Source of the DNA: Gemmatimonadaceae bacterium
GTDB lineage: Bacteria; Gemmatimonadota; Gemmatimonadetes; Gemmatimonadales; Gemmatimonadaceae
Reading direction: 5' to 3'
DNA length: 64,000 nt
Assembly (NCBI GenBank): GCA_036376535.1
Contig: DASVAC010000169.1
Span: 14,572-78,571, forward strand
The notes beneath the pieces are model-generated. The model was not told the DNA's origin. It saw only the letters and a program-made list of their open reading frames with translations, and searched no databases. This document shows positions 2 to 64,000 of the stretch, in pieces. Position 1 is the stretch's first letter. Each line of letters starts with the position of its first letter. A program made the position numbers and the translations under genes.

Positions 2-793
2 GGCATCGTGCTCGGCGGCGCATTCGGCGCCCTGCTCGGCGCCGGCACAAACAATCTCGCGCTCGGATTCGCCGCCGGATGTGCAGCGGGGCTCATCATC
101 GCGGCGCTGTTCGGCGTGTTCGCCGTGGCCATGCGTGCCGACCAGATCATCACGGGTACGGCCATCAATTTGCTCGTTCTTGGCCTAACGGGCGCACTCT
201 ATCGCGGACTGTACGGCGCGACAGGCGCGGCGCTTACCATCCCAACGACTGGTTCCGTGGCGATACCGCTGTTGTCACGCATTCCGGTGATCGGACCGAC
301 GTTTTTCGATCAACCTCCGCCGACGTACCTCGTGTATCTCGCGGCGCCCGCGTTGTGGTGGTGGTTGTATCGGACCCACGCAGGTCTGGCGATCCGCGCC
401 ATAGGCGAGCGATTGGAGTCGGTTCGCGTTTCCGGCGTGGACGTACCGCGCTGGCGGTGGATCACGCTATTGGTCGGCGGCGCGCTCGGCGGCGTCGCCG
501 GTGCGACGCTGGTGTTGTCTCAATCGGGCACGTTCGCGGAGGGCATGTCGGCCGGGCGCGGGTTCATCGCGATCGCTATCGTCGTGCTCGGCCGCTGGCG
601 CCCGATGGGTGTGCTCGTCGCGTCGCTGCTGTTCGGCGCGGCGAGTGCCCTCCAGTATCTGTTCCAGGCGATGGGTTGGAGCGTGCCATACCAACTCTTT
701 CTCGCGCTCCCCTACGTGCTCACGCTATTGGCGCTCGCCGGGTTTGCCGGACGTCGGATCGAGGCCCCGGCCGCGCTCGGCCGCGCCGGATGA
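2..793 (+). CDS. ABC transporter permease (BMP / simple-sugar or nucleoside type), 5' end cut by window
   Basis: ORF 8..793 is open to the window edge. Multi-pass hydrophobic protein (ADQIITGTAINLLVLGLTGALYRG, GRGFIAIAIVVLGRW) typical of BMP-family ABC permeases. Confidence 0.6.
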   Translation, partial: GIVLGGAFGALLGAGTNNLALGFAAGCAAGLIIAALFGVFAVAMRADQIITGTAINLLVLGLTGALYRGLYGATGAALTIPTTGSVAIPLLSRIPVIGPTFFDQPPPTYLVYLAAPALWWWLYRTHAGLAIRAIGERLESVRVSGVDVPRWRWITLLVGGALGGVAGATLVLSQSGTFAEGMSAGRGFIAIAIVVLGRWRPMGVLVASLLFGAASALQYLFQAMGWSVPYQLFLALPYVLTLLALAGFAGRRIEAPAALGRAG

Positions 794-815
794 TCTGCGC
801 GCGTTCGCGCGCCGC

Positions 816-1781
816 CTAACAGCCGGTGTGCACGCTCGTCCAGCGCACGCGCCAGGATCCGTCCGACCGTCGCTCGAGTAGCGCGTACGCATTCGTGTCC
901 TGGCCTTCGCGCAACACGAACAGGCCAACGTGATCCGGTGACGGCAGGCGCACGGCGGCGAGGACATCCGTCGTTTCGATCGCCTCCTCCAGTCCGCCGG
1001 CCCGCTCATGGTACGCGACGCGGAACGCCGCATCCGGCGTCGCTGTGCTGCGCTCGGCAATGATCAGCGTGTGCTGCTCGAGCGGCGACGCTTCCTGATT
1101 CAACCGCCTAACGAGATCGGCGACCACGCCTTCGGTGCCGGCAACGGGTTGGAACCGGTACGCGTAGCGGACCGAAAACGGAATCCCGCGAAAGGTCCGG
1201 CTCGTGTCATCGGGAAGCGCGGACGCCAGCCGGGTCAAATCGGCCGCCAGCCGCGCCGAGTCGGTGCCCGACATCCCGTCGAGGGAATCGAGGCTCACGG
1301 GGGAGACGTGTTGGTCAACGAAACCAACGGTCCAGCCCGCGGATCGCGTCGTGTCGCCACCGACATCGAGCGTCGCCGTTGGCCATTCGACGCACTCGTC
1401 GCCTGCCCATTGCTTGGAGCCCGCTGAAATCACCGGCACTCTGTCCACGGTGCCGCCGCGGCCCACGAGCGAAACCGAATCCCCGCGCAACGTCGATGCA
1501 TCGAGCTGCAGCGTATCGGGCACCGTGCTGTCGCTGTAGTCCGGAAACACGACCCACGCATTCGCGGCCGATGCGCCGCGGGCCAGCACCACCGGACCGG
1601 CGCTCGAGTCCCACTGCGTCGCCGGCACGGGCGCCGGTTGCGTCGCCACCGACTCGGCTGCGTTAGGCGGAGGGGTGCGCGCCGGCGCGGGCTGCCGAGA
1701 GCGCTCGCACGATGCGAGCAGCACAACGAGCGCGACGAGTTGCGTCGCGCGCTGTATCACAACACGACAGGCCACTGACAT
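816..1781 (-). CDS. Putative lipoprotein, unknown function
   Basis: 321-aa ORF. N-terminus has a signal peptide with lipobox-like LLASC. No domain recognised by eye. Stop codon TAG lies inside a GTTAGGC word. Confidence 0.5.
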   Translation of the reverse strand: MSVACRVVIQRATQLVALVVLLASCERSRQPAPARTPPPNAAESVATQPAPVPATQWDSSAGPVVLARGASAANAWVVFPDYSDSTVPDTLQLDASTLRGDSVSLVGRGGTVDRVPVISAGSKQWAGDECVEWPTATLDVGGDTTRSAGWTVGFVDQHVSPVSLDSLDGMSGTDSARLAADLTRLASALPDDTSRTFRGIPFSVRYAYRFQPVAGTEGVVADLVRRLNQEASPLEQHTLIIAERSTATPDAAFRVAYHERAGGLEEAIETTDVLAAVRLPSPDHVGLFVLREGQDTNAYALLERRSDGSWRVRWTSVHTGC

Positions 1782-1844
1782 GCGTGCAATCTTCCTGTGC
1801 TCGATGCAGGCGTCAACAACCGTGATCGCGGTCGCCGCTTCCGC

Positions 1845-2150: not shown

Positions 2151-2537
2151 CTAATTGCAGGCGACGACGGACTCCACAGTGGCAGGAGACGGTGGCGTTG
2201 CGGTGCCAATGTAGATCGCGCACACGGACGACGATGCTCCGGGGTGGCTCGCCGTTGCCGACCAGCCGGACGGCGACGCTTCACCAACCGTCACCGTCGT
2301 GCCCGAAGAGGCCGTAAAATTGATCGCCGTGAGGTTGGTCGAGTAGACGTCGTTCGTATAGTAGTACGACTCTTCAGCGGTCGCGAGATTGCGAAGGTCG
2401 GACCGCATCATTGCCGTGTATGCTCTGCCTTTCGTCGCAGAAAACTTCGGTACCGCGATCGAGGCGAGAACGCCAATGATCACGACCACGATCAGCAACT
2501 CGATTAGGGTGAAGCCGGATTCGCGGGAGCGAGACAT
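2151..2537 (-). CDS. Type IV pilin (prepilin-type N-terminal cleavage/methylation domain)
   Basis: Short leader MSRSRESG then FTLIELLIVVVIIGVLASIAVPKF. C-terminal Cys pair (C...C-N) suggests a disulfide loop. Start chosen at the internal ATG at 2537 of ORF 2151..2570. Confidence 0.85.
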   Translation of the reverse strand: MSRSRESGFTLIELLIVVVIIGVLASIAVPKFSATKGRAYTAMMRSDLRNLATAEESYYYTNDVYSTNLTAINFTASSGTTVTVGEASPSGWSATASHPGASSSVCAIYIGTATPPSPATVESVVACN

Positions 2538-2764
2538 AGGACGTTCCCCATGGCCGAAAATTGGAGGCACGACACGTGACTCACGCGCCGTCCAAGAGCA
2601 ATGGAGGTGCCGCCTCGGCGATTGAAGGTAAAGTGTTGAGAAGGCTTGATTTAGGTGGCGAAGAGCAGCGGCCTGGAGTTATTTTGACCGCTCGATTTGC
2701 CATGCTTGTGGCAGACTGCAATGCCAGATGAGACGGCCTTAAGCTAGCGTCTTGCGAGGCAGTC

Positions 2765-3160
2765 TTACTGCGTACAGCCGATGACGTTCTTGAGCGTGGC
2801 TGGCGCCAAGACCGGCGCATTGCCGTAGTAGATGGCGCACATGGCGCTGTCACCAGCATAGCTGGCCTTCGCAGCCCAACCGAGCGTGTCAGCCGACACC
2901 ATGCTGATGGAGACGCGCGGACTGCTGCTGTACTGGATCAGTCGAAGGTCCGTGCTATACGTCCCTGCGATGTTCCAGTACGCTTCTTCGGTCGAGGCGA
3001 GATTCCTGAGATCCGTGACCATCGTGGTCAGGTAGAAGCGCCGCTTGTACTCCCGGTAGCGCGGAATCGCCAAGCCGACCAGAACCCCCATCACGACCAG
3101 CACGACCAGCAATTCGATCATCGAGAAACCCCGTAAGGCACGGCCGCGTCGCGACGCCAC
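2765..3160 (-). CDS. Type IV pilin, second tandem copy
   Basis: Leader ...RRGRALRG then FSMIELLVVLVVMGVLVGLAIPRY, with a C-terminal Cys pair. GTG at 3160 gives an 11-aa leader. The longest ORF start (3229) would give an atypically long leader. Confidence 0.8.
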   Translation of the reverse strand: MASRRGRALRGFSMIELLVVLVVMGVLVGLAIPRYREYKRRFYLTTMVTDLRNLASTEEAYWNIAGTYSTDLRLIQYSSSPRVSISMVSADTLGWAAKASYAGDSAMCAIYYGNAPVLAPATLKNVIGCTQ

Positions 3161-3313: not shown

Positions 3314-6130
3314 TCAGTGCTTCGTATCCAGCCAGTTGTCTCCGATACCGACGTCGACGACCAACGGAACCGAGAGCTCGGCGGCATGCTCCATCTCGTG
3401 ACTAACGAGCTCGCGCAGTGACTCGATCTCGTCGGTGGGAGCTTCGAACACCAGCTCGTCGTGCACCTGGAGAATCATGACCGAGCGCGCATCGCGCGAG
3501 CGAAGCGCTTCGTGGATGCGGATCATGGCGATCTTGATGAGATCCGCTGCCGAGCCCTGAATGGGAGAGTTGGTGGCCGTCCGTTCGCCGAATTGGCGGA
3601 CGCTGAAGTTGCGATCGCGGAGCTCGGTGATGTATCGGCGCCGGCCGAACAGCGTTTGCACGTACCCGTTCTCGCGCGCGAACTCGACCATCGAATCGAG
3701 ATAGACGCGAATGCCGCGGAACCGCTCGAAGTACTCGCTGATGAATCGCCGCGCCTCCGCGGGCTCGATGCGCAGCTGGCGAGACAATGCGTTGGCGCCC
3801 TGGCCGTAGATCGTCGCGAAGTTGATCGTTTTCGCGCGCGCCCGCATTTCGGAGGTGACTCCTTCGATCGGCACGCCGAAAATGATGGACGCCGTTTGTC
3901 GATGGATGTCTCCGCCGGCACGGAACGCATTCACGAATGCGGGGTCGGCCGACAGGTGCGCGAGCAATCGCAGCTCGATCTGCGAGTAGTCGGCGGCGAT
4001 CAATTTCCAACCCGGCCGCGGGATGAATCCGCGCCTGATGTCTCGACCGAGCTCGCGGCGAATCGGGATGTTTTGAAGATTCGGATCGCTCGACGAGAGA
4101 CGCCCCGTGCTCGCGACGGTCTGATTGAACGACGTGTGAATGCGGCCGTCGCCTGGATGCACGAGTGCGGGAAGCGCATCGAGATACGTGCCCTCGAGCT
4201 TCGACAGCTCACGGTATTCCATGAGCAGCGATGGAAGCGCGTGACCCTGCTCCGCCAGCTGCTGAAGAACCGATGCGTCGGTGGATGGTCCGCTTGGCGT
4301 CCGCTTGAGCACGGGGAGCTCGAGCTTCTCGAACAGGATCTGACGCAGCTTTGGATTCGAGTTGATGTTGAATGGCTCACCCGCAGCCTCGTAGATGTCC
4401 TGCTCCACGCGCTCCCGCTCGCGCTGAAACCGCTCTTTGAGTGAGGCGAACCATGGCCGGTCGATCGACACGCCGTGCCACTCCATTTCGGCCAGCACGC
4501 CGACCAGTGGCAGCTCGATGTCACACATGAGCTTCGTGAGCGCATACGCGTCGAGCTGGGGCTCGAACAGTGCACGCAACTGAAGCGTCATGTCCGCGTC
4601 TTCGCACGAATAGTCGCGTGCGGCGCTGACAGCACATTCGTCGTACGGCACGGCGTTGCGACCCTTGCCACACAGATCATCGTACGTGGTCATCTTGTGG
4701 TCGAGGAACTCGAGCGCGAGGACGTCCAAGCCGTGCGAACGGCGACCCGGATCGAGCACGTAGCTCGCGATCATCGTGTCGAAGTCGACGCCCGCGAGCC
4801 TAACGCCGGCTCGTCGCAACGCCAGCGTGTCGAACTTGGAGTTCTGGGCGGTTTTGCGGACCGCGGGATCCTCGAGGAGCGCGCGGAGCGGCGCCATCTC
4901 CGCGGAGCCGATCGGCGGCAGATTCCTGATTGCCCCTGCGGACGCGTCAGCCGCTGAAGGCGGCGCGGAGTCCGGCAGCAATTCGTGTTGCGCCGGCCGG
5001 TGCGGGCGATGGCGGAACGGCAGATAATACGCCTCGCCCGGCGCGACCGCGATCGACAAGCCGACTAACGTGGAGCGAAGCGGGTCGATCTCGAGCGGGC
5101 TATCGGCATCGACAACGGTTTCCGTGTCGACCGCGATGTACGGCGCGCTGCGAGCGCGCGCATAGATCTTGTCGAGCGCCGCGAGCGTGTCGGCCGTGAC
5201 ATAGCGCGCGCGTTGCACCGGACGCGGCGCGGCCGTCGCGTGCTCTTTGGCGAGCGAGTGGAACTCGAGCTCGACGAACAACTCCTTCAGTCGCGCGTGG
5301 TCGGGTTCGGACACGGCCAAGGCGGAGAGGTCGAGCGAGACCGGCAAATCTTCGCGAATTGTTACTAATTCCTTCGACAGGCGGGCGGCATCGGCCTGCG
5401 TTAGGAGCGCCTCGCGCGGGCGCTTTTTCGTGATGGACTCCGCGTTCGCCAGGATGTTCTCGAGCGTTCCGTAGGTCGCCACGAGCTCGACCGCCGTCTT
5501 GTCGCCGATGCCCTTCACGCCGGGGATGTTGTCGGATGAATCACCGACGAGTGCGAGATAGTCCGTGACGCGATCCGCCGGGACGCCGAGTCGTTCTGAC
5601 GCGTTTTCGGTTGTGACCCACTGCTCTTCGACAGCTGCCGCGCCACCTCGACCCGGATTGAGCAATCGCACACCGGGGCGAACGAGCTGCTGAAAGTCCT
5701 TGTCGCCGGAGACGACGACCACATCGAGCCCGGCGTCGACGCCGAGCCTGGCCATCGTGCCGATGATGTCGTCGGCCTCGTAGCCCTTGAGTGTGATGAC
5801 AGGGACCTTGTACGCGTCGAGCAGACTCCCGATGCGTTCCATGCCGCGGTCGAAGTCCGCCTGCAGCTCTTCGCCGAGTTTTTCGCGCGTTGCCTTGTAG
5901 TCAGGATAGCGCTCGTGGCGGAACGACAGTCCCGAGTCGTGCACCCATCCGAGATAGTCGGGCCGGTGTGTTGCGAGCAGGCGCTGAAGGAAGTTGACGA
6001 CGCCCCACGCCGCCGACGTGTTTTCGCCGCGGCTGGTGGTGAGTGGGCGGGAGATCAGGGCGAAGAAGGCGCGATAGATGAGTGCGTAACCATCGACCAA
6101 GAACAGGCGGGCTGGCTCTTTTGGCGGCAT
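3314..6130 (-). CDS. polA: DNA polymerase I
   Basis: 938 aa. 5'-nuclease N-terminus (LFLVDGYALIYRAFFA), 3'-5' exonuclease region, and polymerase motifs (DYSQIELRLLAH, QVHDELVFE). Confidence 0.97.
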   Translation of the reverse strand: MPPKEPARLFLVDGYALIYRAFFALISRPLTTSRGENTSAAWGVVNFLQRLLATHRPDYLGWVHDSGLSFRHERYPDYKATREKLGEELQADFDRGMERIGSLLDAYKVPVITLKGYEADDIIGTMARLGVDAGLDVVVVSGDKDFQQLVRPGVRLLNPGRGGAAAVEEQWVTTENASERLGVPADRVTDYLALVGDSSDNIPGVKGIGDKTAVELVATYGTLENILANAESITKKRPREALLTQADAARLSKELVTIREDLPVSLDLSALAVSEPDHARLKELFVELEFHSLAKEHATAAPRPVQRARYVTADTLAALDKIYARARSAPYIAVDTETVVDADSPLEIDPLRSTLVGLSIAVAPGEAYYLPFRHRPHRPAQHELLPDSAPPSAADASAGAIRNLPPIGSAEMAPLRALLEDPAVRKTAQNSKFDTLALRRAGVRLAGVDFDTMIASYVLDPGRRSHGLDVLALEFLDHKMTTYDDLCGKGRNAVPYDECAVSAARDYSCEDADMTLQLRALFEPQLDAYALTKLMCDIELPLVGVLAEMEWHGVSIDRPWFASLKERFQRERERVEQDIYEAAGEPFNINSNPKLRQILFEKLELPVLKRTPSGPSTDASVLQQLAEQGHALPSLLMEYRELSKLEGTYLDALPALVHPGDGRIHTSFNQTVASTGRLSSSDPNLQNIPIRRELGRDIRRGFIPRPGWKLIAADYSQIELRLLAHLSADPAFVNAFRAGGDIHRQTASIIFGVPIEGVTSEMRARAKTINFATIYGQGANALSRQLRIEPAEARRFISEYFERFRGIRVYLDSMVEFARENGYVQTLFGRRRYITELRDRNFSVRQFGERTATNSPIQGSAADLIKIAMIRIHEALRSRDARSVMILQVHDELVFEAPTDEIESLRELVSHEMEHAAELSVPLVVDVGIGDNWLDTKH

Positions 6131-6638: not shown

Positions 6639-6915
6639 GAGAACGCCATGCGGCACAAGAAGATACATATTTCGTCATTCGGATGTTGGCCGGTGGCCTT
6701 GCGTTAGGCAATCGCGGCCGGGGCCACAACGCGGTCGGATGACCCCTCGAACGCACCGGAGTCGCCCGCATAGAGCGCACAGGAGATTCTCCCCTGCTTT
6801 AAGGCGCCACCATTCAGCCATTGTAGCGCCAAATATGCCTAGTTCGTGCCCCAGACGCCCAAATCGCACGCCGAGGAGGGAAGTCGCTGCCGAGCACGGT
6901 CATCCGTGACCTTGG

Positions 6916-7968
6916 ATGCCTGCACCAGCACGCGTTGGCGTCAGGGCGACGTCACAGCCCAGCGAATCACGGCGTGCAACTAACGATGTGCTACGCACAT
7001 CCTGCTTGCTGCCTTATTGGAGTCCAGTTAGCTTCGCCGGCGTGAGTCGCGAGAACCTCTCCGGGACGACGCTCGCTGGTTACAAGCTCCACGATATGGT
7101 CGGCGAAGGAGGAACGGCGGTAGTGTACCGCGCCGATCATCCGCAGCACGGCACTGTCGCGGTGAAAGTGTTGCGCGAAAAGCTGCGCAACGACAAGACC
7201 GCAGTCGCGCGGTTTCTTCGTGAGGCGACCTACGGGACGAAGGTCATTCATCCCAACGTCGTCCGGACCATTGAGATCGGCGAGGCGCGACCGGGCCTCC
7301 ACTTCCTGGCTACCGAGTGGGCGCCAGGCGAGCTGCTCGAGAAGTACGCGAAGCGGCACGCGCCGCTACCGCCCGAAGAAGTCTCGGGCATCATCCAGCA
7401 AATCGCGGAAGCCGTGCACGCGGCCCACTCGGCCGGCATCATCCATCGGGATCTCAAGCCCGACAACCTGATGTACGACGCGCCGACCAAGCAGGCCAAG
7501 CTGCTCGATTTCGGCATCGCGGCACAGACGGATCTCTCGCCCGACGAGCGCCTAACGCGCGCCGGATTTTTCGTGGGCACGCTCATGTACGTGGCGCCGG
7601 AAGCGCTGTCCGGGCAGCTCGTGACGGCGGCGGCGGATCAGTACAGCCTGGCCACCATCGCGTATTACTTGCTCTCGGGCTCGCTCCCGTACACGGCGAA
7701 ATCGCAGCGCGAGATGTTCACGCAGTTGCTCTCGCAGCCGCCGATTCCGCTGCTCGCGTCGCGCAAGGGACTCGACGTGTCTCCCGCGGTCGAGGCCGTG
7801 GTGATGAAGGGGCTCGCGCGCAATCCGTCCGATCGGTATCCGGACACGTTGTCGTTCGCGACTGCGCTGCGAGGAGCGGTCGAGGCGCCGCCAGCGCGCA
7901 AGGACGGGTTGTTGCGGCGCGTGCGGTCGCTGCTGCATCGCGACGACCCGGACGCATCGAGGGCGTAG
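6916..7968 (+). CDS. Ser/Thr protein kinase (Hanks type)
   Basis: GEGGTAVVY glycine loop, VAVK, HRDLKPDN, DFG and APE motifs. In-frame GTG at 7042 is an alternative, more typical start. Confidence 0.9.
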   Translation: MPAPARVGVRATSQPSESRRATNDVLRTSCLLPYWSPVSFAGVSRENLSGTTLAGYKLHDMVGEGGTAVVYRADHPQHGTVAVKVLREKLRNDKTAVARFLREATYGTKVIHPNVVRTIEIGEARPGLHFLATEWAPGELLEKYAKRHAPLPPEEVSGIIQQIAEAVHAAHSAGIIHRDLKPDNLMYDAPTKQAKLLDFGIAAQTDLSPDERLTRAGFFVGTLMYVAPEALSGQLVTAAADQYSLATIAYYLLSGSLPYTAKSQREMFTQLLSQPPIPLLASRKGLDVSPAVEAVVMKGLARNPSDRYPDTLSFATALRGAVEAPPARKDGLLRRVRSLLHRDDPDASRA

Positions 7969-12835: not shown

Positions 12836-12849
12836 CGAGTTGTTAGGCG

Positions 12850-46184: not shown

Positions 46185-46218
46185 GATCTGAATCCTTGAT
46201 CGTTAGGCATGAGCACGT

Positions 46219-51540: not shown

Positions 51541-51541
51541 G

Positions 51542-54450: not shown

Positions 54451-55676
54451 GCGCTCCTTCTCCCGCTGCCCCCGATTTCGTCATACAGCTTTCGCGCGCG
54501 CTGCACAAGCGCGGCGTGGCAAGCGGCGTCGCTCGCGCCGCGTGCGAAGATGGTACAGACGGGGCTGCCGCGCGGAATCCGCTCACCGGGATGCGGGACG
54601 TCTCGCACCGAGGGATCGTCGAGCCACGCGTGCGTATCGCCGACGACAACCGTCCGCTTCGCGAACACTATCGCCTTGCCGAAGACCTCGGCAGCGGATT
54701 CGTGGCGGGCGGATTCAAGATCGAAACGCGGCGCGATTCCACAGCACCCGCTGACGTGCGCACCGAACACCGAGAATTCGAACGCGCGTTCGGCGAGCTC
54801 CATGGACGCCGTGTACCGCGGATTTATCTCGGTCACGAACGGCGTGCCGTTCCGGGCAATGAAGTCGATCCCGTTGACACCCACCAGGCGCAGCTCCCGC
54901 GTGAGAGTGTCGGCGATGGTGCAGACGGTGTCGAACAACGCGTCGCCTGAGGCGAACGTTGTCGACCGGTGAGGCACGAGAATACTGCCGCAGTACCCGA
55001 ATCCGGAGGCCCCGAACTCGGCCTCGCCCACGAGTTGTCGACTGAACGCGAATGGGACTGCGCGCGTGCCGTCGGCGGCAAATACGAGCGAGCCGGCTTG
55101 GCCGGCGATGCGTTGTTGCAGAAAATGCGTTCTGCGCAGCGTGTCGCCACGTCGCCAGCGCGTGATGCCGTGACCGCCGCCTGAGGCGAACGGCTTGGCC
55201 AGCCACGCGGTGTGGCCGGGATCTCGGCCACTGCGGAGACGCAGCGCCGGCGCCGCGAATCCGCGCGCCCGCAGCAGGGCTGCCACGACCGATGGCGACC
55301 GCGCCCGAGTCAGCACGGGTGGCGGATTGCCGAGGAGTCGCCGGCCGCGCGCCAACACGCGCACCGCGTCGGGGTGGTTCTCGAAGCTGGCGACGTACGA
55401 CACCCAATCGCCGGGCACCGCGGCCGCCGCGCGGGCGATGCCTAACGGATCGTACCGGCCGACGCCTGGTGACGAAGCGCGCACGGCCAACGCCGGCGTC
55501 GCGGCGTTGTCGAGATCGGCGAAGGCGTCGACCGATGCCACGGTGTAGCCGGCTCGCACCGCCGATTCGACCAATGCGCGCGTCGAAAAGCCGGCGACGA
55601 CGACGCCTCCCGCCGGTCCGGTTCGCACGCGCGCACGATTCGCGTCAGGCGATGCCGAGGCGGTGGCGCGCGGCAT
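54447..55676 (-). CDS. ATP-grasp enzyme associated with methanofuran/H4MPT cofactor biosynthesis (MfnD-like?)
   Basis: GVNGIDFIARNGTPFVTEINPRYTASMEL and a pre-ATP-grasp N-terminus. Start uncertain because of a 32-nt overlap with the upstream ORF. Confidence 0.6.
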   Translation of the reverse strand: MPRATASASPDANRARVRTGPAGGVVVAGFSTRALVESAVRAGYTVASVDAFADLDNAATPALAVRASSPGVGRYDPLGIARAAAAVPGDWVSYVASFENHPDAVRVLARGRRLLGNPPPVLTRARSPSVVAALLRARGFAAPALRLRSGRDPGHTAWLAKPFASGGGHGITRWRRGDTLRRTHFLQQRIAGQAGSLVFAADGTRAVPFAFSRQLVGEAEFGASGFGYCGSILVPHRSTTFASGDALFDTVCTIADTLTRELRLVGVNGIDFIARNGTPFVTEINPRYTASMELAERAFEFSVFGAHVSGCCGIAPRFDLESARHESAAEVFGKAIVFAKRTVVVGDTHAWLDDPSVRDVPHPGERIPRGSPVCTIFARGASDAACHAALVQRARKLYDEIGGSGRRSA

Positions 55677-56721
55677 CGGGGGTGATCACGAAGAGATGGT
55701 CGAGCACGGTGCCGGCCGCCTCGCGCAGCCCGAGCACGTTGACGAGGGCTTCGTTCGGGCCGCCGGCGAGGCCGTCGGCTACGAGCGCGGCGCCCTGCGC
55801 GGCTTCCTTCGCCGTGCGCGCGAAGCCCTCGAGGCGCCGAACGGGCGCGAACGGGCTCAGTCTGCGTCGCAGCTCGCGCGCGACCTCGTCGGCGTGCGTT
55901 AGGCGACCCGAGAGGAGGATCTCGAACGGGCGCGGCACGATGGTGCACAACGCGGCCACGGCCTTGACCGCGCTCTCGATCACCGCGTCGCGCGCCATCT
56001 GCTCGCGCTCGGTGCTCGGCGCCGCGACGTGGTGCACCGCATCCTGCGCGCTGCCGATCACGCTCGCGGCGCCGCCGCCGAAGAGCGTGTCCTTGGTGAT
56101 CGTGCCGGCGAGGAACGCGACTTCGCCGTCGAGTGCGCCGGCGGCACGCACGCCCATCGGTCCCGCGGTGCCGCCCATTCCGTCGACGATGCGGCCGTCC
56201 TGCACGGCGATGGCCGCCGAGAACGCTCCGCCTAACTCGAGCAGGACGAACGACACGTCGGTGTACGGGCAGCCCCGACGCCGCGCCTGGTCGTGCACGC
56301 CGAGCGCGGCGGCGCAGACTTTGTCGGCGGTGCCCATGTCGACGCGGTTGATCTTGCGCGCCGCCGGCACCGACGTGAGGTGGATGACGCCGGGCGTGAA
56401 CAACACCGGCAGCTGCGCATCGCGCATGGCGCGGGCGAGCACGCGCAGGCCGCCGATTCCGCCGTGGTCATCCGTCGCGGCGAGGTAGGCGAGCCGGAGA
56501 TCGGTCTCGCCGGCGCGCTCGACGGGCGTGAGCGGCAAACCGTAGCCGGATGGACCGGCGATGAGTGCGGCGCGCGCGCCCTGGAGGATCGCGATGAACG
56601 CCGGCACGTCGGCCAGCGCCTGCGCAGTGGGTAGCGACCGATCGAGAAAGACCGCGCCGTCATGGAGCCCGCACAGATCGATGCTCATCGTGCCGGGATC
56701 GATGCCGAGCGTGCGGGGCAT
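55645..56721 (-). CDS. DUF1464 / ASKHA-fold (actin-like ATPase) protein of H4MPT clusters
   Basis: MPRTLGIDPGTMSIDLCGL...ELGGAFSAAI. Confidence 0.55.
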   Translation of the reverse strand: MPRTLGIDPGTMSIDLCGLHDGAVFLDRSLPTAQALADVPAFIAILQGARAALIAGPSGYGLPLTPVERAGETDLRLAYLAATDDHGGIGGLRVLARAMRDAQLPVLFTPGVIHLTSVPAARKINRVDMGTADKVCAAALGVHDQARRRGCPYTDVSFVLLELGGAFSAAIAVQDGRIVDGMGGTAGPMGVRAAGALDGEVAFLAGTITKDTLFGGGAASVIGSAQDAVHHVAAPSTEREQMARDAVIESAVKAVAALCTIVPRPFEILLSGRLTHADEVARELRRRLSPFAPVRRLEGFARTAKEAAQGAALVADGLAGGPNEALVNVLGLREAAGTVLDHLFVITPDAARHRLGIA

Positions 56722-56748
56722 GTGGGGCGCGATCCGGCGTCGGTTCCG

Positions 56749-57618
56749 TTAGGCCTGGAGGCCCTGGGCGAGCTCGGCGATGGACTCGGCGTCGAGGACG
56801 GCGTCGTTGCGCTCGAACAGGCGCGCGATACACGCCTTGTGGACTTTCATCTTGAAGCCGCCCACGCCGATCGCGCCGAACGCGGTGACGCCGTCCTTGT
56901 CCTTGCCGTCGTCGTTCACGTCGATGCCCTCGATGCCTAACGGAGGGACGGCGTTGAGGTCGCATGCGACGGCGAGCCCCTGGCGCGTGGACCACGCGTC
57001 GCGCGGCACGAGCAGCACGCCCGCGGGTCCGGTGTTGAGAAGAATGTCCGGGCGGACGGCATCGAGGACGTGCGCGGCCTCGGACGCGTTGCGCATGCAC
57101 ACCATGGCGACGCCGCCGCCGAACCGCGTTTGGATGTTCGATCGCGCGCGTTCGCCTTCCTCGTCGCGGCGCGACGTGATCGTGACGCGCGCGCCCGCTT
57201 TGGCGAGGAGACCGGCTGCGCGCAGGCCCACCGGTCCGGTGCCGGCAGTCACGAGCACTTTCCGGTCACGCACATCGCGCACGGCGCGCGTGATTTTCAC
57301 GACCGCGGCGACGGCCGTCGTGTTGGACCCGTTCGAGTCCAACATCATCGACACGCGAAACGGACCAAACACCGCCTTCTGCGCCGCCTCGAGCAGCTTC
57401 TCGCCCACCGACATGTCATTGCCGCCGATGAACACCGCGGTGTTGCGGAGATCTTTCGGTCCGCGCGTGAAGATGCACCCGTAGATCAGGTCGCGGACAT
57501 CGCCTTCGGTCACTCCGCCGCGCTGCATGATGGCGTCCGCGCCGCCGTCGTGCGCGACGACTTCGTCGAACGCGCTGGGGAGTCGATTCGAATCGAGCTG
57601 AAGCAGGAGTTTTTTCAT
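56749..57618 (-). CDS. mtdB: NAD(P)-dependent methylene-H4MPT dehydrogenase (MtdA/MtdB family)
   Basis: MKKLLLQLDSNRLPSAFDEVVAHDGGAD...FGPFRVSMMLDSNGSNTTA...VTAGTGPVG. The A-versus-B assignment is from context only. Confidence 0.85.
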   Translation of the reverse strand: MKKLLLQLDSNRLPSAFDEVVAHDGGADAIMQRGGVTEGDVRDLIYGCIFTRGPKDLRNTAVFIGGNDMSVGEKLLEAAQKAVFGPFRVSMMLDSNGSNTTAVAAVVKITRAVRDVRDRKVLVTAGTGPVGLRAAGLLAKAGARVTITSRRDEEGERARSNIQTRFGGGVAMVCMRNASEAAHVLDAVRPDILLNTGPAGVLLVPRDAWSTRQGLAVACDLNAVPPLGIEGIDVNDDGKDKDGVTAFGAIGVGGFKMKVHKACIARLFERNDAVLDAESIAELAQGLQA

Positions 57619-57637
57619 CCCGGCCACCCATCGATGA

Positions 57638-58488: not shown

Positions 58489-59808
58489 ATGCGCATTCCG
58501 ATCGAGAGCTATCGCCTGTCCAACGGCCTCGTCGTCACGCTGTCTGAGGATCATACGGCGCCACTTGTCGCCGTGAACTTGTGGTACCGCGTTGGCTCGG
58601 CCAATGAACGCATGGGGCGAACCGGATTCGCCCATCTGTTCGAACACATGTTGTTTCAGGGTTCGGAGCACGTTGCGGCCAACGAGCACTTCGAGTTGAT
58701 CCAACGCGCGGGCGGCACGCTCAACGGTTCGACGTGGCTGGATCGCACGAACTACTACGAGACGGTGCCGTCGAACGAGCTCGCGCTTGCGTTGTGGCTC
58801 GAGTCCGACCGGATGGGCGCACTCCTGCCCGCGATGACACAGCAGAAGCTCGACACGCAGCGCGATGTGGTGAAGAACGAGCGCCGCTGGAGTATGGACA
58901 ACCAGCCGTATGGGACGTGGTCCGAGCGGCTGCCGGCCCTCACGTACCCCGCGAGCCACCCGTTCCATCACTCGCTCATCGGGTCGATGGAGGATTTGTC
59001 GGCCGCGAGTCTCGAGGACATCGCGGCGTTCTTTTCTACGTATTACCGCCCGGACAACGCGGTGCTTTCGATTGCCGGTGACTTCGAGCCGCGACAGGCG
59101 CGCGCGTTCGTGGAGCAGTACTTCGGCGTGATTCCGCGCGGAACGACTCCGGTTCCGCCGCTCGCCGAGCTGCAGCTGCCGCCGCTGTTCGGCGAATGGC
59201 GCCGCGAAGTGGTGCCCGACATGGTGATGGTGCCGAGGTTGTTCCTGGCGTTCCGCGCGCCGGTGTTCGGGAGCGACGAGTACTACGACTGCAGTGTGTT
59301 GGGCGCGATCCTCGGCATGGGGAAAGCGAGCCGGCTGCAGCGCGAGCTGGTGCGCGAGCGCGAGATCGCGAGCGAAGCGACGGCGTTCACGTTCGACCTC
59401 ACGCAGGGCGCGGACCTGTTGGTGATCGACGCGACAGCGCGGCCCGAAGTGTCGAGCGACGCGCTCGAGGCGGAGGTGGCGCGCGAGGTCGATGCGGTGC
59501 GCGCGGGCGGTGTGACTGCTGCCGAAGTGGAGCGCGCGGTGGCGCTCATCGAGACGGCGTTCGTGACGTCGCTGCAGTCGGCGGGCGAGCGGGCGGACAA
59601 ACTTTCCATGTTCGCGGCGATGTTCGACGATCCGCGGCTGCTCAACGAGCAGACCGATCGCTATCGCGCCGTGACGGTCGAGCGCGTGAACGCGTTCGCC
59701 CGCGAACGGTTAGGCACGAACAACCGGGCCAGCCTGATGTACGTCCCGAAGGACGGCGACGAGGGCCAGCCCGACGAGACCGAAGCGGCCACCGGAGCGG
59801 CGCGGTGA
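58489..59808 (+). CDS. M16 (pitrilysin/insulinase) zinc peptidase, active-type subunit
   Basis: HxxEH motif in GFAHLFEHMLFQGS. Start at the ATG at 58489. Confidence 0.85.
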   Translation: MRIPIESYRLSNGLVVTLSEDHTAPLVAVNLWYRVGSANERMGRTGFAHLFEHMLFQGSEHVAANEHFELIQRAGGTLNGSTWLDRTNYYETVPSNELALALWLESDRMGALLPAMTQQKLDTQRDVVKNERRWSMDNQPYGTWSERLPALTYPASHPFHHSLIGSMEDLSAASLEDIAAFFSTYYRPDNAVLSIAGDFEPRQARAFVEQYFGVIPRGTTPVPPLAELQLPPLFGEWRREVVPDMVMVPRLFLAFRAPVFGSDEYYDCSVLGAILGMGKASRLQRELVREREIASEATAFTFDLTQGADLLVIDATARPEVSSDALEAEVAREVDAVRAGGVTAAEVERAVALIETAFVTSLQSAGERADKLSMFAAMFDDPRLLNEQTDRYRAVTVERVNAFARERLGTNNRASLMYVPKDGDEGQPDETEAATGAAR

Positions 59809-61211
59809 GCGGCGCGCCGATTGCGTTAGGCGGCGCGCGCGCGGCGCCCGCGCGTCCGGCCGCCGCGCCGCCCAAGCCGTACCGGTTTCCGCGCTTCGAG
59901 ATCGCCACGCTCGACAACGGGCTGCGGGTCATCGTCGCCCCGGTGCGGACGCTGCCGGTGGTGACGGCGTTGCTGCTCGCGGACGCGGGCGCGTCGACGG
60001 AGCCCGGGGCCCAAGACGGCGTGGCGAACCTCACCGCGCGCGGCCTGCTCGAGGGGACGATGCGCCGCGACGGCAACGCGCTCACCGAACAGTTCGAGCG
60101 GTTAGGCGCGGGCGTGTTCTCGGGCGCCGACTGGGATACGGCGAACGCCGGCGTCACCGTGCTGCGCGCGCACCTCGAGCCCGCGCTCTCGCTCCTCGGC
60201 GAGCTGGTGCTGGCGCCATCGTTTCCCGAGCGCGACATCGCGCGTCTGCGCGCCGAGCGTCTGGCGGACCTGCTGCAAATGCGCACGGAGCCGCGCGGTC
60301 TGGCCGATGAGATGTTCGCGCGTTTCGTGTACGATCCGCTCTCGCGTTACGCGCGTCCGGAGGAAGGCGGCTCGGATACGGTGTCGACGCTCACCCGCGA
60401 CGACGTCCGCCGTTTCTATATGGATCGGTACCGGCCGCGCGGATCCACGCTCGTGCTCGTGGGCGACCTGAGCGTGGACGACGGACTCGACCTCGCGCGC
60501 CGTACGTTAGGCGGGTGGCATGGAACGGCGTCGCGCGGCGCGCCGCCGGCGGAAGCGCCGGCCCGCACCACGCGCGCCGTGCACCTGGTGCGCAAGCCGG
60601 ATGCGCCGCAGTCGGAGCTGCGCATCGGCCACATCGGGTTGCCGCGCACGCACCCCGACTATTTCCCGGTGCTCGTGATGAACGCCGTGTTAGGCGGGCT
60701 GTTCTCGTCGCGCATCAACCTCAACCTGCGCGAGGAGCACGCCTACACGTACGCGGCGTTCTCCGGATTCGCGTGGCGGCGCGGCGCAGGGCCGTTCGTC
60801 GTGTCGACGGCGGTCGAGAGCGACGTCACCGCCGATGCGGCGCGCGAGGTGCTCACGGAAATCGATCGCATTCGTTCGGCGCCGGTCACGGCAGACGAGC
60901 TGTCGCTGGCCACGAGTTATCTGGGCGGCGTATTCCCGATCAAGTACGAAACGACCGACGCCATCGCGCGCGCCCTCGCCGCGCTCGCCGCATTCGACCT
61001 GTCCATCGACTACTTCGACACGTACCGGGATGCGGTCCGCGGAGTGAGCAGCGCGGACATCCAGCGCGCGGCCGAGAACTACCTGCACCCCGACGCGCTG
61101 CAGGTGGTGGTGGTGGGCGACGCATCGGAGATCAAGGCGCCGCTCGCGGCGATGGAGCTCGGCCCGCTGCTCGAGTACGGCGCCGATGGCGTCGAGCTCT
61201 CCACCGACTGA
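59805..61211 (+). CDS. M16 peptidase-like subunit lacking HxxEH (non-catalytic partner)
   Basis: M16 fold (LDNGLRVIVAP...) without the zinc motif. GTG at 59805 forms a GTGA overlap with the upstream stop. The 671-aa ORF in the track is a run-on. Confidence 0.8.
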   Translation: MSGAPIALGGARAAPARPAAAPPKPYRFPRFEIATLDNGLRVIVAPVRTLPVVTALLLADAGASTEPGAQDGVANLTARGLLEGTMRRDGNALTEQFERLGAGVFSGADWDTANAGVTVLRAHLEPALSLLGELVLAPSFPERDIARLRAERLADLLQMRTEPRGLADEMFARFVYDPLSRYARPEEGGSDTVSTLTRDDVRRFYMDRYRPRGSTLVLVGDLSVDDGLDLARRTLGGWHGTASRGAPPAEAPARTTRAVHLVRKPDAPQSELRIGHIGLPRTHPDYFPVLVMNAVLGGLFSSRINLNLREEHAYTYAAFSGFAWRRGAGPFVVSTAVESDVTADAAREVLTEIDRIRSAPVTADELSLATSYLGGVFPIKYETTDAIARALAALAAFDLSIDYFDTYRDAVRGVSSADIQRAAENYLHPDALQVVVVGDASEIKAPLAAMELGPLLEYGADGVELSTD

Positions 61212-61214
61212 CGC

Positions 61215-61766
61215 ATGGCTGACCCCGGGCGGGTATCTTCGTCGCGCCAGTACACGGGCCGCATCATCAACCTCGATCTCGACACCGTTCGCTTTCCCGA
61301 TGGCTCCACGGGCGAGCTCGAGATGGTTAGGCATCCCGGCGCGAGCCTCGTGCTCCCGTTCCTGGGCGATCCGGCGGGAGCTGATCCGCAGATCCTGCTC
61401 ATCCGCCAGTATCGCTACGCGGCAGGGGGCTTCGTGATCGAGTGTCCGGCGGGGCGGCTGGAGGCGGGCGAGTCGCCGGAAGCGTGCGCGCGGCGCGAGC
61501 TGCTCGAGGAAGCCGGCTGCACCGCCGAGCGGTTGGACCACGTGTACACGTTCTACACGACGCCGGGCTTCACCGACGAGCGAATCCACGCGTTCATGGC
61601 GTCCGGTCTCTCGCGCGGTACAGCGCGTCCGGAGGCGGATGAGTTCGTCGAGAATCTCGTGATGCCGCTGTCGCGCGCACTCGAGATGGTGCGTGACAGC
61701 GAGATCGTCGACGCCAAAACGGCCCTCACGCTGCTCTACGTGGCAGGTTTCCGGCTCGGCGCCTAA
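61215..61766 (+). CDS. NUDIX hydrolase (ADP-ribose pyrophosphatase-like)
   Basis: Nudix box GRLEAGESPEACARRELLEEAGC. Confidence 0.85.
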   Translation: MADPGRVSSSRQYTGRIINLDLDTVRFPDGSTGELEMVRHPGASLVLPFLGDPAGADPQILLIRQYRYAAGGFVIECPAGRLEAGESPEACARRELLEEAGCTAERLDHVYTFYTTPGFTDERIHAFMASGLSRGTARPEADEFVENLVMPLSRALEMVRDSEIVDAKTALTLLYVAGFRLGA

Positions 61767-61780
61767 CGATCAGTTAGGCG
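61760..61780. terminator. Short inverted pair of the abundant word between convergent genes
   Basis: CGCCTAAC-GATCA-GTTAGGCG, an 8-bp stem with a 5-nt loop. The left arm contains the TAA stop of the NUDIX gene. Confidence 0.45.
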
Positions 61781-61784
61781 AGCG

Positions 61785-63212
61785 TCACTTCGTCCAAATG
61801 AGGATGGCGCCGCACGCGCCCACCAGATATTCCGGCGGTGTCGACGCCGCGTCGTACACTTCGATGCCGGCCACCTGGTCGGGTTGGACCATCTCGTTCA
61901 CGCTGAAGGTCGTGTCCACGCGCACGCCGTCGATCCAGACGTCCGGTGCACAGGGCCCTCGGATGCTCGCGCCCTGGGTCGAGAGCAGCTGATAGTCCAA
62001 ACCGGATTGGGATTGCACGCGGATGCCGGGCACGAGGTAAAAAAAGTCCGTTAGGAGCATCGGACGCGCTTTCGCAATGTCGAGGTCGGTGTAATAGCGG
62101 CCGATCCCGTGTTTGCGGCGGTCCTCGAACTCCTTGAGCTTCGCCGTCGTCGCCCGGTCGGCGTAGACGCGCACGGCGGCCAGAACCTTCACGGGCTTGC
62201 TCATCACGACACGCACGGTATCCGTACGCCCCGGCGCAAGATTCACCACCTTCTGCTTCGGTTCGAAACCGAGGTAGCGTGCTTCGATCGTACCCGTGCC
62301 CGATGGGAGCGAGTCCAGAACAAACTGGCCACTCGCGCCCGTGATGGTCGTGCCCGCGCCCCAGAGCGTGACATGGGCGCCCTGCAGGAAACGCCCCGTG
62401 GAGTCGCGAACAGTTCCGACGAGCCGCGCGGTGCCGTGGCGCATGGCGTCGCCTAACGGAGAGACAGCGGTGTGGACGTCGGAGGCGGTTGCGGTGTCGG
62501 TGCCCATGTCGAAGTCTCGCTCGAGCACGCCGTGCAGCGGGACCTCGACCTCGATGAATCCGGTGGCGCGGGCGCCGAGCTCGGCGCGGGTTTCGAGGGG
62601 CGTGCCGAACGGTAAGCCACACAGCGCGAACCATCCTGTCGGCGACGTCTTGGCCGGCACCTGGCGGCGATCGTTGTGCATGCCAGCGTTATCGATAGTG
62701 AGCTCGCGCCAGATCACGACCACCGTCGACAAGCCCACCGGCATCCCTGTCGACGCGTCGCGCACGAGACCGACCATGACTCCGCTCGAGTCCGATGCCT
62801 TGGACGGTCCGCAGATCTTGTCGTGGATCGCGCGTTGACCGGGAATCGCCAACCGCAGGTGGTCGATGGGTGTTGCTCCGATCTCGAGCTGTTCCTCGAT
62901 CATGCTCAGTCCGAGTTCGGACAGCGTCGGATCCACGAAGCCGATGAGGTACTTCCCGGGCGGTACGTGTGCGATCGAATACCGTCCAAGAGAATCGCTC
63001 CTCGCGCTGAACGACAACGCGGGATTCGGCACCGAGACCAGCTGCACAATGGCACCGCCCACCGCCACCGTTCGGACGCTGTCGTAGACGTCGCCGGAGA
63101 CAACGGTGCCGGCGATTGTGTCGGACGCGGTGGGCCGCTGTGCGGATGCGAATCGGGGTACGACGAGGGAGATCGCGGCAGATATCGCGACGACGCGCAG
63201 ACCGAAAGGCAT
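61785..63212 (-). CDS. CarboxypepD_reg-domain protein with TonB-receptor plug-like C-terminus (no barrel)
   Basis: Signal peptide MPFGLRVVAISAAISLVVPRFASAQ, two GxVxDxxtGxP-type regulatory-like modules, and C-terminal GIEVYDAASTPPEYLVGACGAILIWTK. Confidence 0.6.
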   Translation of the reverse strand: MPFGLRVVAISAAISLVVPRFASAQRPTASDTIAGTVVSGDVYDSVRTVAVGGAIVQLVSVPNPALSFSARSDSLGRYSIAHVPPGKYLIGFVDPTLSELGLSMIEEQLEIGATPIDHLRLAIPGQRAIHDKICGPSKASDSSGVMVGLVRDASTGMPVGLSTVVVIWRELTIDNAGMHNDRRQVPAKTSPTGWFALCGLPFGTPLETRAELGARATGFIEVEVPLHGVLERDFDMGTDTATASDVHTAVSPLGDAMRHGTARLVGTVRDSTGRFLQGAHVTLWGAGTTITGASGQFVLDSLPSGTGTIEARYLGFEPKQKVVNLAPGRTDTVRVVMSKPVKVLAAVRVYADRATTAKLKEFEDRRKHGIGRYYTDLDIAKARPMLLTDFFYLVPGIRVQSQSGLDYQLLSTQGASIRGPCAPDVWIDGVRVDTTFSVNEMVQPDQVAGIEVYDAASTPPEYLVGACGAILIWTK

Positions 63213-63214
63213 CG

Positions 63215-64000
63215 TCACTTGGTCCAGATGACGATCACGCCGCACTGCCCCACGCGGTACCGTGGCGGCGCGTTCGACTCATCGTAGACCTCGATGCCCG
63301 TCACGTCCTCGGGTCGGACTAGCTCGTTGAGCCCGCCCTGATGCAGCTGCGCGTCGTTGATCCAGACCGCCGGGCTGCATTCGTCGCTGATGTCACCGCC
63401 ATGTGCCGAGAGGAGCTCGAAGTCGGAACCGGAAACCGGCACAACGCGAACGCCCGGTATCATGTAGAAGAAGTCCGACAGCATGAGCGGGTTGGCCTTG
63501 GCGATATCGTCGGCGGTGTAGAAGTGGCCGAGGCCGCTCTTTCGGCGCTCGTCGAACTCGTGGTATCGCATGAGGCCCGTCTTGCTCTCGACCTTCACGG
63601 CGGCGAGAACCCGCACGGTCTTGCTCATCGTGAATCGAACAGTGTCGATACGACCAGGCGCCAGATCGACCACCCGCCTCACGGGCTCGAAGCCGAGATA
63701 CTGTGATTCGATGGTTGCCGTGCCCGAGGGGAGCGAATCGAGATAGAAGCGCCCATCGGAGGTCGTCGTGGCTGTGGCGGATCCCCACAAGGTGACGTGC
63801 GCACCGGTGAGCAGCCGTCCCGCGGAGTCGGCGACCGTGCCGGTGAGGCGCGCCGTTCCGTGCCGCAGGGATTCGCCTAACGGAGACGCGCCTTTCTCGC
63901 GGTTCACCGCGAGCACCGTGTCTGCGCCGACGTCGAAGTCGCGCACGAGCACGCCGCGACGCGGCAACCGGACCTCGATGAAACCTGTGGCGCGCGAGCC
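63215..64000 (-). CDS. Paralog of the preceding CarboxypepD_reg/plug-like protein, 5' end beyond window
   Basis: Colinear similarity to 61785..63212 (…GIEVYDESNAPPRYRVGQCGVIVIWTK). The frame stays open to position 64000. Confidence 0.6.
   Translation of the reverse strand, partial: GSRATGFIEVRLPRRGVLVRDFDVGADTVLAVNREKGASPLGESLRHGTARLTGTVADSAGRLLTGAHVTLWGSATATTTSDGRFYLDSLPSGTATIESQYLGFEPVRRVVDLAPGRIDTVRFTMSKTVRVLAAVKVESKTGLMRYHEFDERRKSGLGHFYTADDIAKANPLMLSDFFYMIPGVRVVPVSGSDFELLSAHGGDISDECSPAVWINDAQLHQGGLNELVRPEDVTGIEVYDESNAPPRYRVGQCGVIVIWTK

Follow-up and report, generated by a model that had tools for sequence, protein, structure and literature searches.

Why does a stretch of bacterial chromosome carry one short, non-palindromic DNA word about once per kilobase, at the same density within its genes as between them? 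We analysed a stretch of 64,000 nt from a Gemmatimonadaceae genome (contig DASVAC010000169.1; 'the window' below), in which the 7-mer GTTAGGC, mostly as the 8-mer CGTTAGGC (reverse complement GCCTAACG), is repeated far beyond expectation. The reading that we favour, at a probability of roughly 40%, is that CGTTAGGC is a lineage-specific tag of self-DNA, similar to the DNA uptake sequences of Neisseriaceae (DUS) and Pasteurellaceae (USS), that has been spread by biased uptake or recombination.

Abundance and anatomy of the word

An earlier note on this DNA had counted by eye 45 copies of GTTAGGC and 36 of GCCTAAC on the + strand, and estimated that about three quarters of them extend to the 8-mer. 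An exact recount gave the identical total of 81, of which 60 (33 + 27; 74%) are CGTTAGGC, corresponding to 1.27 seven-mers and 0.94 eight-mers per kb. Zero-order composition predicts 7.3 copies of the 7-mer, and 100 dinucleotide-preserving shuffles gave 1.2±1.2 copies of the 8-mer (maximum 7). The 56 genes called make up 86% of the window. Shuffling their codons 500 times, with the encoded proteins unchanged and codon usage as in the window, predicted 2.3 seven-mers and 1.25 eight-mers in genes, where 65 and 49 are seen. As an empirical background, 65 related word-free loci contain 15 words in 1,077 kb (0.014 per kb), and those of them with GC above 0.62 contain 4 words in 606 kb. The observed-to-expected ratio (O/E) is 29–39 against the codon-preserving shuffles and about 90–190 against the word-free relatives. 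Ranked by O/E within the window, the word comes first among the 8-mers and also among the 7-mers. Dinucleotide shuffles, codon shuffles and word-free relatives agree with the note's argument that the exact word is favoured, and that this is not an effect of composition or codon usage. The 21 single-mismatch neighbours sum to 126 copies and are mostly ordinary Leu-Gly or Pro-Asn spellings, the commonest being GTTCGGC (37) and GTTGGGC (22); those that the note had located lie where it put them, within 1 base.

Two minor features of composition were seen alongside. The one-mismatch variant CGTTAGTC is mildly raised in the window, with 4 copies (3400, 5063, 23652 and 29268). GC-rich palindromic words (TCGCGCGCGA and ATCGCGAT, 20 copies each, and 8-mers containing CGATCG) are common across the window and recur in many Gemmatimonadaceae loci, with or without CGTTAGGC.

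Sixty-five copies lie wholly in genes, including polA, dnaA, yidC, mnmE and fhcA, which bears out the earlier placing of copies inside housekeeping and C1 genes; five lie over gene ends and 11 are intergenic. Each of the five gene-end copies provides the stop codon, four through GCC-TAA (TAA) and one through TAG. The in-gene copies occupy all four frames, over both strands, that hold no in-frame stop: 42 read G-TTA-GGC (Leu-Gly, sense), 12 G-CCT-AAC (Pro-Asn, antisense), 8 GC-CTA-AC (Leu-Thr, antisense) and 3 GTT-AGG-C (Val-Arg, sense). The codons that spell the word are the rarest in this genome of 67% GC, and TTA, used 60 times in the window, stands before GGC in 43 cases. It is used at 43 of 157 Leu-Gly sites (27%), 12 of 34 Pro-Asn sites (35%), 11 of 103 Leu-Thr sites and 5 of 149 Val-Arg sites, and at 29 of the 60 tripeptides of the form [Ala/Pro/Ser/Thr]-Leu-Gly. 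Most of the excess of sense copies is due to coding constraint, there being far more Leu-Gly than Pro-Asn sites.

The earlier note had seen no conserved flanks beyond the 8-mer. This did not hold: the 81 aligned copies prefer T at −3 (40 copies, 49%) and C at −1 (60, 74%) and seldom have T at +7 (3, 4%). No sequence information was found past about 11 bp around the copies. T at −3 is present in 22 of 42 sense copies, where it falls on a third codon position at which T otherwise makes up 8.8%, in 11 of 20 antisense copies and in 7 of 16 intergenic copies. As the preference is the same in all three classes, the unit that is read is, to judge from these alignments, about 10–11 bp of double-stranded DNA (T-n-C-GTTAGGC-not T), and neither a pair of codons nor a peptide. 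It is as DNA, not as protein or codons, that the word acts.

Spacing fits random, Poisson-like placement (coefficient of variation 1.07; largest gap 4.8 kb, p = 0.14). Neither periodicity nor evenness could be detected among the 81 copies, and the number of close pairs is as random placement predicts. The close direct pairs pointed out earlier, 27243/27264 and 30435/30444, are present, as sense Leu-Gly copies in a porin-like and an XoxF-type gene, respectively. Two inverted pairs, the only ones seen, lie between convergent genes. The first, at 44943-44994 (GGCCTAACGGAA ... TTCCGTTAGGCC), has 12-bp arms and a 28-nt spacer and folds into a hairpin of −39.8 kcal/mol (z = −4.35) that is strong on either strand. 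The second, at 61760-61780 (CGCCTAAC-gatca-GTTAGGCG), folds into a hairpin of −16.6 kcal/mol (z = −2.96). Both are without a T-run, and two close pairs are no more than chance would give. The longest word-free gap, 19260-24034, holds DUF2268, DUF2225, upp, TetR and DUF218 genes with low coding scores; it is conserved in the nearest relatives (clade A, below) and is therefore not a recent insertion.

Origin, upkeep and distribution

We compared the window with 80 DnaA loci obtained by a DnaA scan with one genome per species. The matches were Gemmatimonadaceae and Gemmatimonadales metagenome-assembled genomes only, the nearest having 92–97% DnaA identity. At aligned word sites, word-free relatives have the same residues in ordinary spellings (CGCTCGGC, CGCTGGGC and CGTTCGGC), that is, as CTC/CTG/TTG-GGC or CCG-AAC. 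Such spellings imply that the words are made by point substitution; by these alignments they arise at sites that already existed, through one or two GC-to-AT substitutions that are mostly synonymous. No forced amino-acid change was seen, in a small sample in which word-free relatives have Leu-Gly at 4 of 7 word sites and 17 of 28 control sites. At two conserved peptides, the Pro-Asn of the MnmE P-loop and one Leu-Gly of YidC, separate word-rich clades have the word at the same site.

The earlier note had also suggested checking whether copies are kept at orthologous positions. Four close relatives, with 60–76% identity at third codon positions, have 65–70% of the words in identical form, above the 7-mer background: in the same relatives only 25–46% of all genic 7-mers and 9–21% of other Leu-Gly 7-mers are identical. 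Among close relatives the word is maintained above the neutral expectation. The most distant member of clade A (L004) shares 1 of 8 words, indicating turnover over longer time scales.

In a neighbour-joining tree of DnaA the word is found in at least three separate word-rich clades with word-free lineages between them, a distribution that is patchy and not family-wide. The five nearest relatives (clade A) have 0.46–0.75 words per kb, clade B (L015, L016, L021, L025 and L046) 0.50–0.73 and clade C (L033, L029 and L014) 0.2–0.4; from the other 65 of the 80 loci the word is essentially absent. The flanks differ among clades. Clade A prefers T at −3 and has C at −1 in 74–79% of copies, with non-C tolerated there; clade B has a strict S-CGTTAGGC-R form (C at −1 in 31 of 31, purine at +7 in 29 of 31); and L033 prefers TCGTTAGGC-T/C, with T at −2 and T or C at +7. 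In two clade A genomes CGTTAGTC is enriched as well (O/E about 30), with 6 copies per 21 kb in L002 and 7 in L003. These differences would be dialects that parallel the DUS dialects described among lineages (PMC3630211).

A search of the word-free loci for over-represented words found no comparable substitute. One isolated candidate, TATCCGGA in L006 (7 copies in 21 kb, dispersed, in both orientations, O/E about 13), was not convincing as an alternative word, although it may be a different over-represented word of another lineage. Nor were CTTGAGGA in L057, with four of its six copies in one gene, and purine repeats in L069.

Most of what pattern scans for paired copies returned from viral and metagenome contigs was tandem repeats, for example (GCGTTAG)n, or pairs due to chance, and only GC-rich contigs with dispersed copies were kept. 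From the metagenomes these were 14 further contigs (GC 0.62–0.74) with 95 words in 76 kb, dispersed in ordinary chromosomal genes, which means that the word is genome-wide where it is present. One 6.7-kb metagenome contig (L384) has 17 copies in the alternating fixed contexts GCTTGTTAGGC and GATCCGTTAGGC, with a period of about 650 bp; it resembles a repeated gene segment, not independent words, and was left out of the statistics.

Among the viral contigs two phages were informative, the other matches being mostly due to chance. The first, IMGVR_UViG_3300025917_000032 (L202/L283, contig 13032-44894), is temperate: it has a tyrosine integrase and a fused protease-major capsid gene, as well as terminase, portal, head-tail and tail genes. 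It carries 41 words in 31.9 kb, which is the density of the host, and its usage equals that of the host (Leu-Gly 15 of 43, Pro-Asn 5 of 12, Leu-Thr 4 of 41). The structural module has about 1.5 words per kb; over the 8 kb beside the integrase the figure drops to about 0.4. The second, IMGVR_UViG_3300020577_002214, has a terminase and its own DNA polymerase, and its 11 words in 25.8 kb are an enrichment of about 10-fold; the 79 terminase-related phages of the comparison set have 39 words in 912 kb. Nearly all of the 11 are the 8-mer followed by a purine, the clade B dialect, and 8 of them lie on one strand.

What could read the word

To account for the data, something must read about one helical turn of DNA in a sequence-specific way, and a force must override codon preference at a quarter to half of the compatible sites, preserve the copies and be limited to certain lineages. 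In the reading that we favour, a sequence-specific DNA-intake protein would bind double-stranded DNA bearing the word, the likeliest candidate being a surface or type IV pilus-associated receptor that acts during natural transformation. Word-bearing fragments would then be taken up and recombined more often than word-free ones, and a point mutation that happens to create the word would be transmitted preferentially (molecular drive, possibly aided by selection). Words would accumulate wherever the protein sequence permits, up to about one per kilobase. This presumes that the bacteria are competent, and that drive, more than selection at the level of the organism, is the force.

On scale (O/E 29–190 at about one per kb), the word is grouped with DUS and USS, which occur once per 400–1100 bp (PMC7371117), and with HIP1 (GCGATCGC) of cyanobacteria, which is 15–300-fold over expectation (PMC5861425), and not with Chi, which has an O/E of about 2.3 at 0.2 per kb (PMC3784561). 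Like the DUS of Neisseriaceae (10–12 bp, with the minor pilin ComP as receptor), it is asymmetric, has a strict core with weaker flanks, a similar density (about one per 0.4–1.1 kb for DUS), both orientations and lineage dialects, and it accumulates on co-evolved mobile elements, as reported for DUS on an integrative and conjugative element (ICE) and for USS on prophages. Inverted DUS pairs form hairpins between convergent genes, as do the two inverted pairs here. Unlike DUS, the word has an unrelated sequence, belongs to another phylum (Gemmatimonadota), has no ComP-like receptor to be seen in the window, shows modest strand asymmetry there and is patchy; moreover, 80% of its copies are in genes, compared with about half of DUS in terminators. 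The USS of Pasteurellaceae (a 9-bp core with flanks) are closer in this respect, being mostly genic and in frames that code for tolerable, common peptides. They also share with the word an origin by point substitution, a density of about one per kb and accumulation on prophages in proportion to co-evolution, but again the sequence is unrelated, and USS flanks are AT-rich tracts where those of the word are single positions. We favour the uptake reading because scale, dialects, both orientations, tolerable frames, hairpin pairs and accumulation on a temperate phage parallel what is seen with uptake sequences. The earlier note had drawn the same comparison, and density, frames, orientations and dialects agree with it. 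The type IV pilin genes in the window give this reading weak support.

Several observations weigh against it. Competence has not been reported for these uncultured bacteria, and our literature search on competence in the group found nothing bearing on the word. No receptor was identified among the genes of the window. Its two tandem type IVa pilin genes, downstream of polA at 2151-2570 (-) and 2765-3160 (-), encode proteins with the N-terminus G|F(T/S)(L/M)IELL and two C-terminal cysteines each. Their nearest PDB entries are PilA/geopilin and they have no ComP match, for which reason we rejected these PilA-like major pilins as ComP-like receptors, although they mean that the organism probably makes pili. 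Both genes, moreover, lie in a 3.1-kb stretch of lower GC (0.61) with zero copies of the word. The strand asymmetry of about 2:1 in the window is not a known feature of DUS or USS. A temperate phage at full host density and a polymerase-bearing phage enriched about 10-fold would be easier to explain by a signal that acts on any intracellular DNA. The patchy distribution in the DnaA tree, over at least three clades, would need the reader to have been lost several times or transferred horizontally. Finally, only about 20% of the words are outside genes, with only two inverted pairs, while Neisseriaceae have about half of their uptake sequences in terminators.

One alternative, which we think unlikely, is a Chi-like signal. 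Here a RecBCD/AddAB-type helicase-nuclease would read the word on single-stranded DNA as it proceeds from a double-strand end, and recognition would switch it from degradation to RecA loading; word-bearing DNA of host or phage would survive and word-free DNA would be destroyed. Known Chi sites are likewise asymmetric (5–8-mers), vary by lineage and are over-represented in some phages as well as in hosts. The phages here carry the word at or near host density, the second one with 8 of 11 copies on one strand, and lambdoid phages without RecBCD inhibitors do likewise with Chi (PMC3784561). Polarity in the window also leans this way. In regions with an absolute GC skew above 0.03, the G-rich strand has 35 copies (65%) and the C-rich strand 19. 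Among genes lying right of dnaA, 21 of 43 Leu-Gly sites of + strand genes (49%) have the word, versus 19 of 84 of − strand genes (23%; p = 0.004); at antisense sites the trend is the opposite one. The effect is weak, about 2:1 at most, and is seen in the window and clade A only: clades B and C and the temperate phage show no strand bias, and there is no flip at dnaA in clade B. Chi, by comparison, is clearly co-oriented with replication, with about 75% or more of the sites on the leading strand. GC skew in the window is +0.08 to +0.2 at about 14–50 kb and near zero at 50–64 kb. Since it does not change sign anywhere in the window, including the divergence of dnaA and yidC, the origin cannot be placed and polarity cannot be tied to replication. 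Scale is a further difficulty, the excess of Chi being about twofold at 0.2 per kb and that of the word 30–190-fold at about one per kb, and the spacing is Poisson-like. In addition, RecBCD/AddAB are near-universal, so the word-free relatives should show another conspicuous word, and none was found. The window itself holds no RecBCD/AddAB genes. A related suggestion of the earlier note, a polar word of the KOPS type, can be rejected: KOPS and architecture-imparting sequences, which orient FtsK, are also asymmetric octamers dispersed along the chromosome, but they are far rarer and very strongly strand-skewed, with a switch of skew at origin and terminus, whereas the skew of the word is at most about 2:1, is absent from the other clades and the phages, and leaves both orientations used at similar saturation.

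We regard as similarly improbable a mark of the HIP1 kind, linked to methylation or defence. In this case the word would be recognized by a modifying enzyme, for example a methyltransferase that is either an orphan or linked to a system; a component of repair, recombination, the nucleoid or defence would read the modified sites, and host and resident phages would be selected to carry them. The statistics are those of the HIP1 class: a hyper-abundant octamer, conserved above controls, present in all frames and at equal density in coding and non-coding DNA, with lineage variants. Patchy phylogeny with varied flank specificity would fit a mobile enzyme gene, and a process inside the cell would explain host-level density on the temperate phage. 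In a cyanobacterium, furthermore, transformation is more efficient with methylated HIP1 (bioRxiv 10.1101/2024.09.10.611283). HIP1 is, however, a palindrome that holds the sites of two orphan methyltransferases and is periodically spaced, whereas the word is asymmetric, unlike every HIP, and is placed in a Poisson-like manner. None of the 56 genes in the window encodes a methyltransferase or restriction enzyme, and restriction recognition sites are normally avoided, not enriched. Biased repair of the very-short-patch type (Vsr) runs in the direction opposite to GC-to-AT. The changes that make the word (CTC/CTG to TTA) are GC to AT, and we therefore rejected such repair as the main generator. 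The mechanism is also incomplete in that its reader is unnamed.

An effect at the level of translation, such as a preference for TTA-GGC as a codon pair or for x-Leu-Gly as a selected peptide motif, is highly improbable. The 42 of 65 genic copies in the G-TTA-GGC frame and the 43 of 60 TTA codons before GGC would suit it, but it is refuted by the 20 genic copies that are antisense (CCT-AAC and CTA-ACG) and the 16 that are intergenic or at gene ends, at equal density. Usage at Pro-Asn (35%) equals or exceeds that at Leu-Gly (27%), all classes of copies show the enrichment of T at −3, and the Leu-Gly residues are already there, in ordinary codons, in word-free relatives. Least probable of all are remnants of a longer repeat or mobile element (REP, MITE) or an artefact of assembly or sequencing, for which nothing speaks but the repetition itself: the unit of about 11 bp is below the more than 20 bp of such elements, which are also mostly intergenic; 80% of the copies here lie within genes, fitting the frame of conserved ones and persisting at orthologous positions, with ordinary codons there in word-free relatives; and the word recurs in independent assemblies of different studies, among metagenome and viral contigs. 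The earlier description of the copies as solitary and unlike REP or MITE elements is upheld by the same evidence.

Among 8 million papers and preprints the word turned up only in two irrelevant matches, to primer or attC sequences, in accordance with the earlier note, which knew of no described word with this sequence; nor did the search find hyper-abundant words or uptake sequences described in Gemmatimonadota. The word is best placed, as a new member, among the few DNA words known to be both hyper-abundant and lineage-specific. Taken broadly, we consider it rather probable that this is an independent and so far undescribed self-tag system of Gemmatimonadota, either the first word of the DUS/USS class outside Proteobacteria or an asymmetric counterpart of HIP1, with a predicted reader gene that moves between lineages and phages that copy the tag. 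Movement of the reader gene would explain why three clades have the same core with different flanks.

Tags of self-DNA at about one per kb are known from few groups (DUS in Neisseriaceae, USS in Pasteurellaceae and HIP1 in cyanobacteria), and the force that builds them, drive or selection, as well as the function of HIP1, are long-standing questions. The present case adds an asymmetric example in an abundant, almost uncultured soil phylum, and is tractable through word-rich and word-free sister genomes, clade-specific flank dialects and phages of graded density. With sister lineages that do and do not have the word, presence/absence profiling should find the reader gene. A tag for uptake or recombination would imply frequent, species-biased gene exchange in soil Gemmatimonadaceae. 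The word could also serve as a marker for binning and for assigning phages and mobile elements to hosts, and possibly as an aid to DNA delivery once a strain rich in the word is cultured.

Positions of the copies and genes of the window

The 42 sense Leu-Gly copies are spread over the whole window. Towards its left end they are in a histidine kinase gene (8112-8118, -), an HTH_18 regulator gene (10907-10913, -), dnaA (15406-15412, -; kept in L001, L002, L003 and L005, and CTC/CTG GGC in word-free relatives), yidC (17053-17059 and 17542-17548, +; clade B loci have the word at the site of the latter) and mnmE (18611-18617, 19178-19184 and 19253-19259, +). A series on the + strand follows in the PQQ dehydrogenase gene 24330-26060 (24614-24620, 25616-25622 and 26000-26006), the porin-like gene (27243-27249 and 27264-27270), the XoxF-type PQQ dehydrogenase gene 28813-30531 (30435-30441 and 30444-30450), a MoxJ-like gene (30902-30908), a cytochrome c gene (32011-32017) and a pentapeptide-repeat gene (32353-32359). 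On the − strand they are in the genes for a GHMP kinase (35163-35169), a dihydropteroate-synthase-like protein (39172-39178 and 39676-39682), an amino-acid-kinase-family protein (42970-42976), a hydantoinase_A-family protein (43209-43215; gene on -) and 6-pyruvoyl-tetrahydropterin synthase (46309-46315), and in mch (49224-49230), the fhcC-like gene 49814-50638 (50240-50246 and 50489-50495), fhcA (51848-51854, 52562-52568 and 52661-52667), fhcB (53425-53431 and 53776-53782), an ATP-grasp gene (55440-55446), a DUF1464 gene (56230-56236) and an mtdB-like gene (56935-56941). The remainder are in the M16-peptidase-like gene 58489-59808 (59709-59715, +), gene 59805-61211 (59825-59831, 60101-60107, 60506-60512 and 60689-60695, +), gene 61785-63218 (-) (62451-62457, -) and gene 63215-64000 (-) (63875-63881, -).

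Pro-Asn copies, all antisense, are at 1662-1668 (+) in gene 816-1760 (-), 11992-11998 (-) in gene 11927-12835 (+), 19001-19007 (-) in the P-loop (GAPNV) of mnmE, where word-free relatives have CCG AAC and clades B and C the word, and 33061-33067 (-) in the pentapeptide-repeat gene. The others are on + against genes on the − strand: 34344-34350 (GHMP kinase), 35889-35895 and 36684-36690 (class IV aminotransferase), 42643-42649 (amino-acid-kinase family), 43755-43761 (hydantoinase_A family), 45990-45996 (gene 45000-46184), 48550-48556 (EthD domain) and 50827-50833 (formyltransferase, fhcD). Antisense Leu-Thr copies on the − strand are at 183-189 (permease gene 2-793 (+)), 7550-7556 (Ser/Thr kinase gene 7006-7968 (+)), 12336-12342 (gene 11927-12835) and 18478-18484 (mnmE), and on the + strand at 36403-36409 (the aminotransferase gene), 38406-38412 (PabB/TrpE-like gene (-)), 39017-39023 (dihydropteroate-synthase-like gene (-)) and 55898-55904 (DUF1464 gene (-)). 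The three sense Val-Arg copies are at 1106-1112 (-) in gene 816-1760, at 4798-4804 (-) in polA, where word-free relatives have GTC ACG (Val-Thr), and at 61326-61332 (+) in a NUDIX gene.

The copy that supplies TAG as the stop codon of gene 816-1760 (-) is at 814-820 (-). TAA is supplied at 44945-44951 (-), to gene 44189-44950 (+), and at 61761-61767 (-), to the NUDIX gene (+); these two copies are the left arms of the inverted pairs at 44943-44994 and 61760-61780, respectively, the right arms being the intergenic copies at 44984-44990 (+) and 61773-61779 (+). The complements of the copies at 51541-51547 (+) and 56748-56754 (+) give the TAA stop codons of fhcA (-) and of the mtdB-like gene 56749-57627 (-). 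Other intergenic copies are at 6703-6709, 12842-12848 (which within clade A is found only in this genome), 24035-24041, 30603-30609, 40408-40414, 44177-44183 and 46202-46208 on the + strand, and at 26166-26172 and 40826-40832 on the − strand.

As to gene content, dnaN and dnaA share a strand and diverge from yidC and mnmE. Two PQQ methanol/ethanol dehydrogenases of the XoxF type, accompanied by MoxJ-like and cytochrome c genes, occupy 24330-33076 (+), and a complete tetrahydromethanopterin (H4MPT) C1 module, with fae, mtdB-like, mch and fhcCDAB genes and genes of pterin/H4MPT biosynthesis, occupies 34254-58260 (-). Together, these genes indicate a potential for methylotrophy in a Gemmatimonadaceae genome, as judged from gene content. 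A class A bacterial RNase P RNA (303 bits) is encoded at 11462-11828 (+), between the HTH regulator gene and gene 11927-12835, and is word-free.

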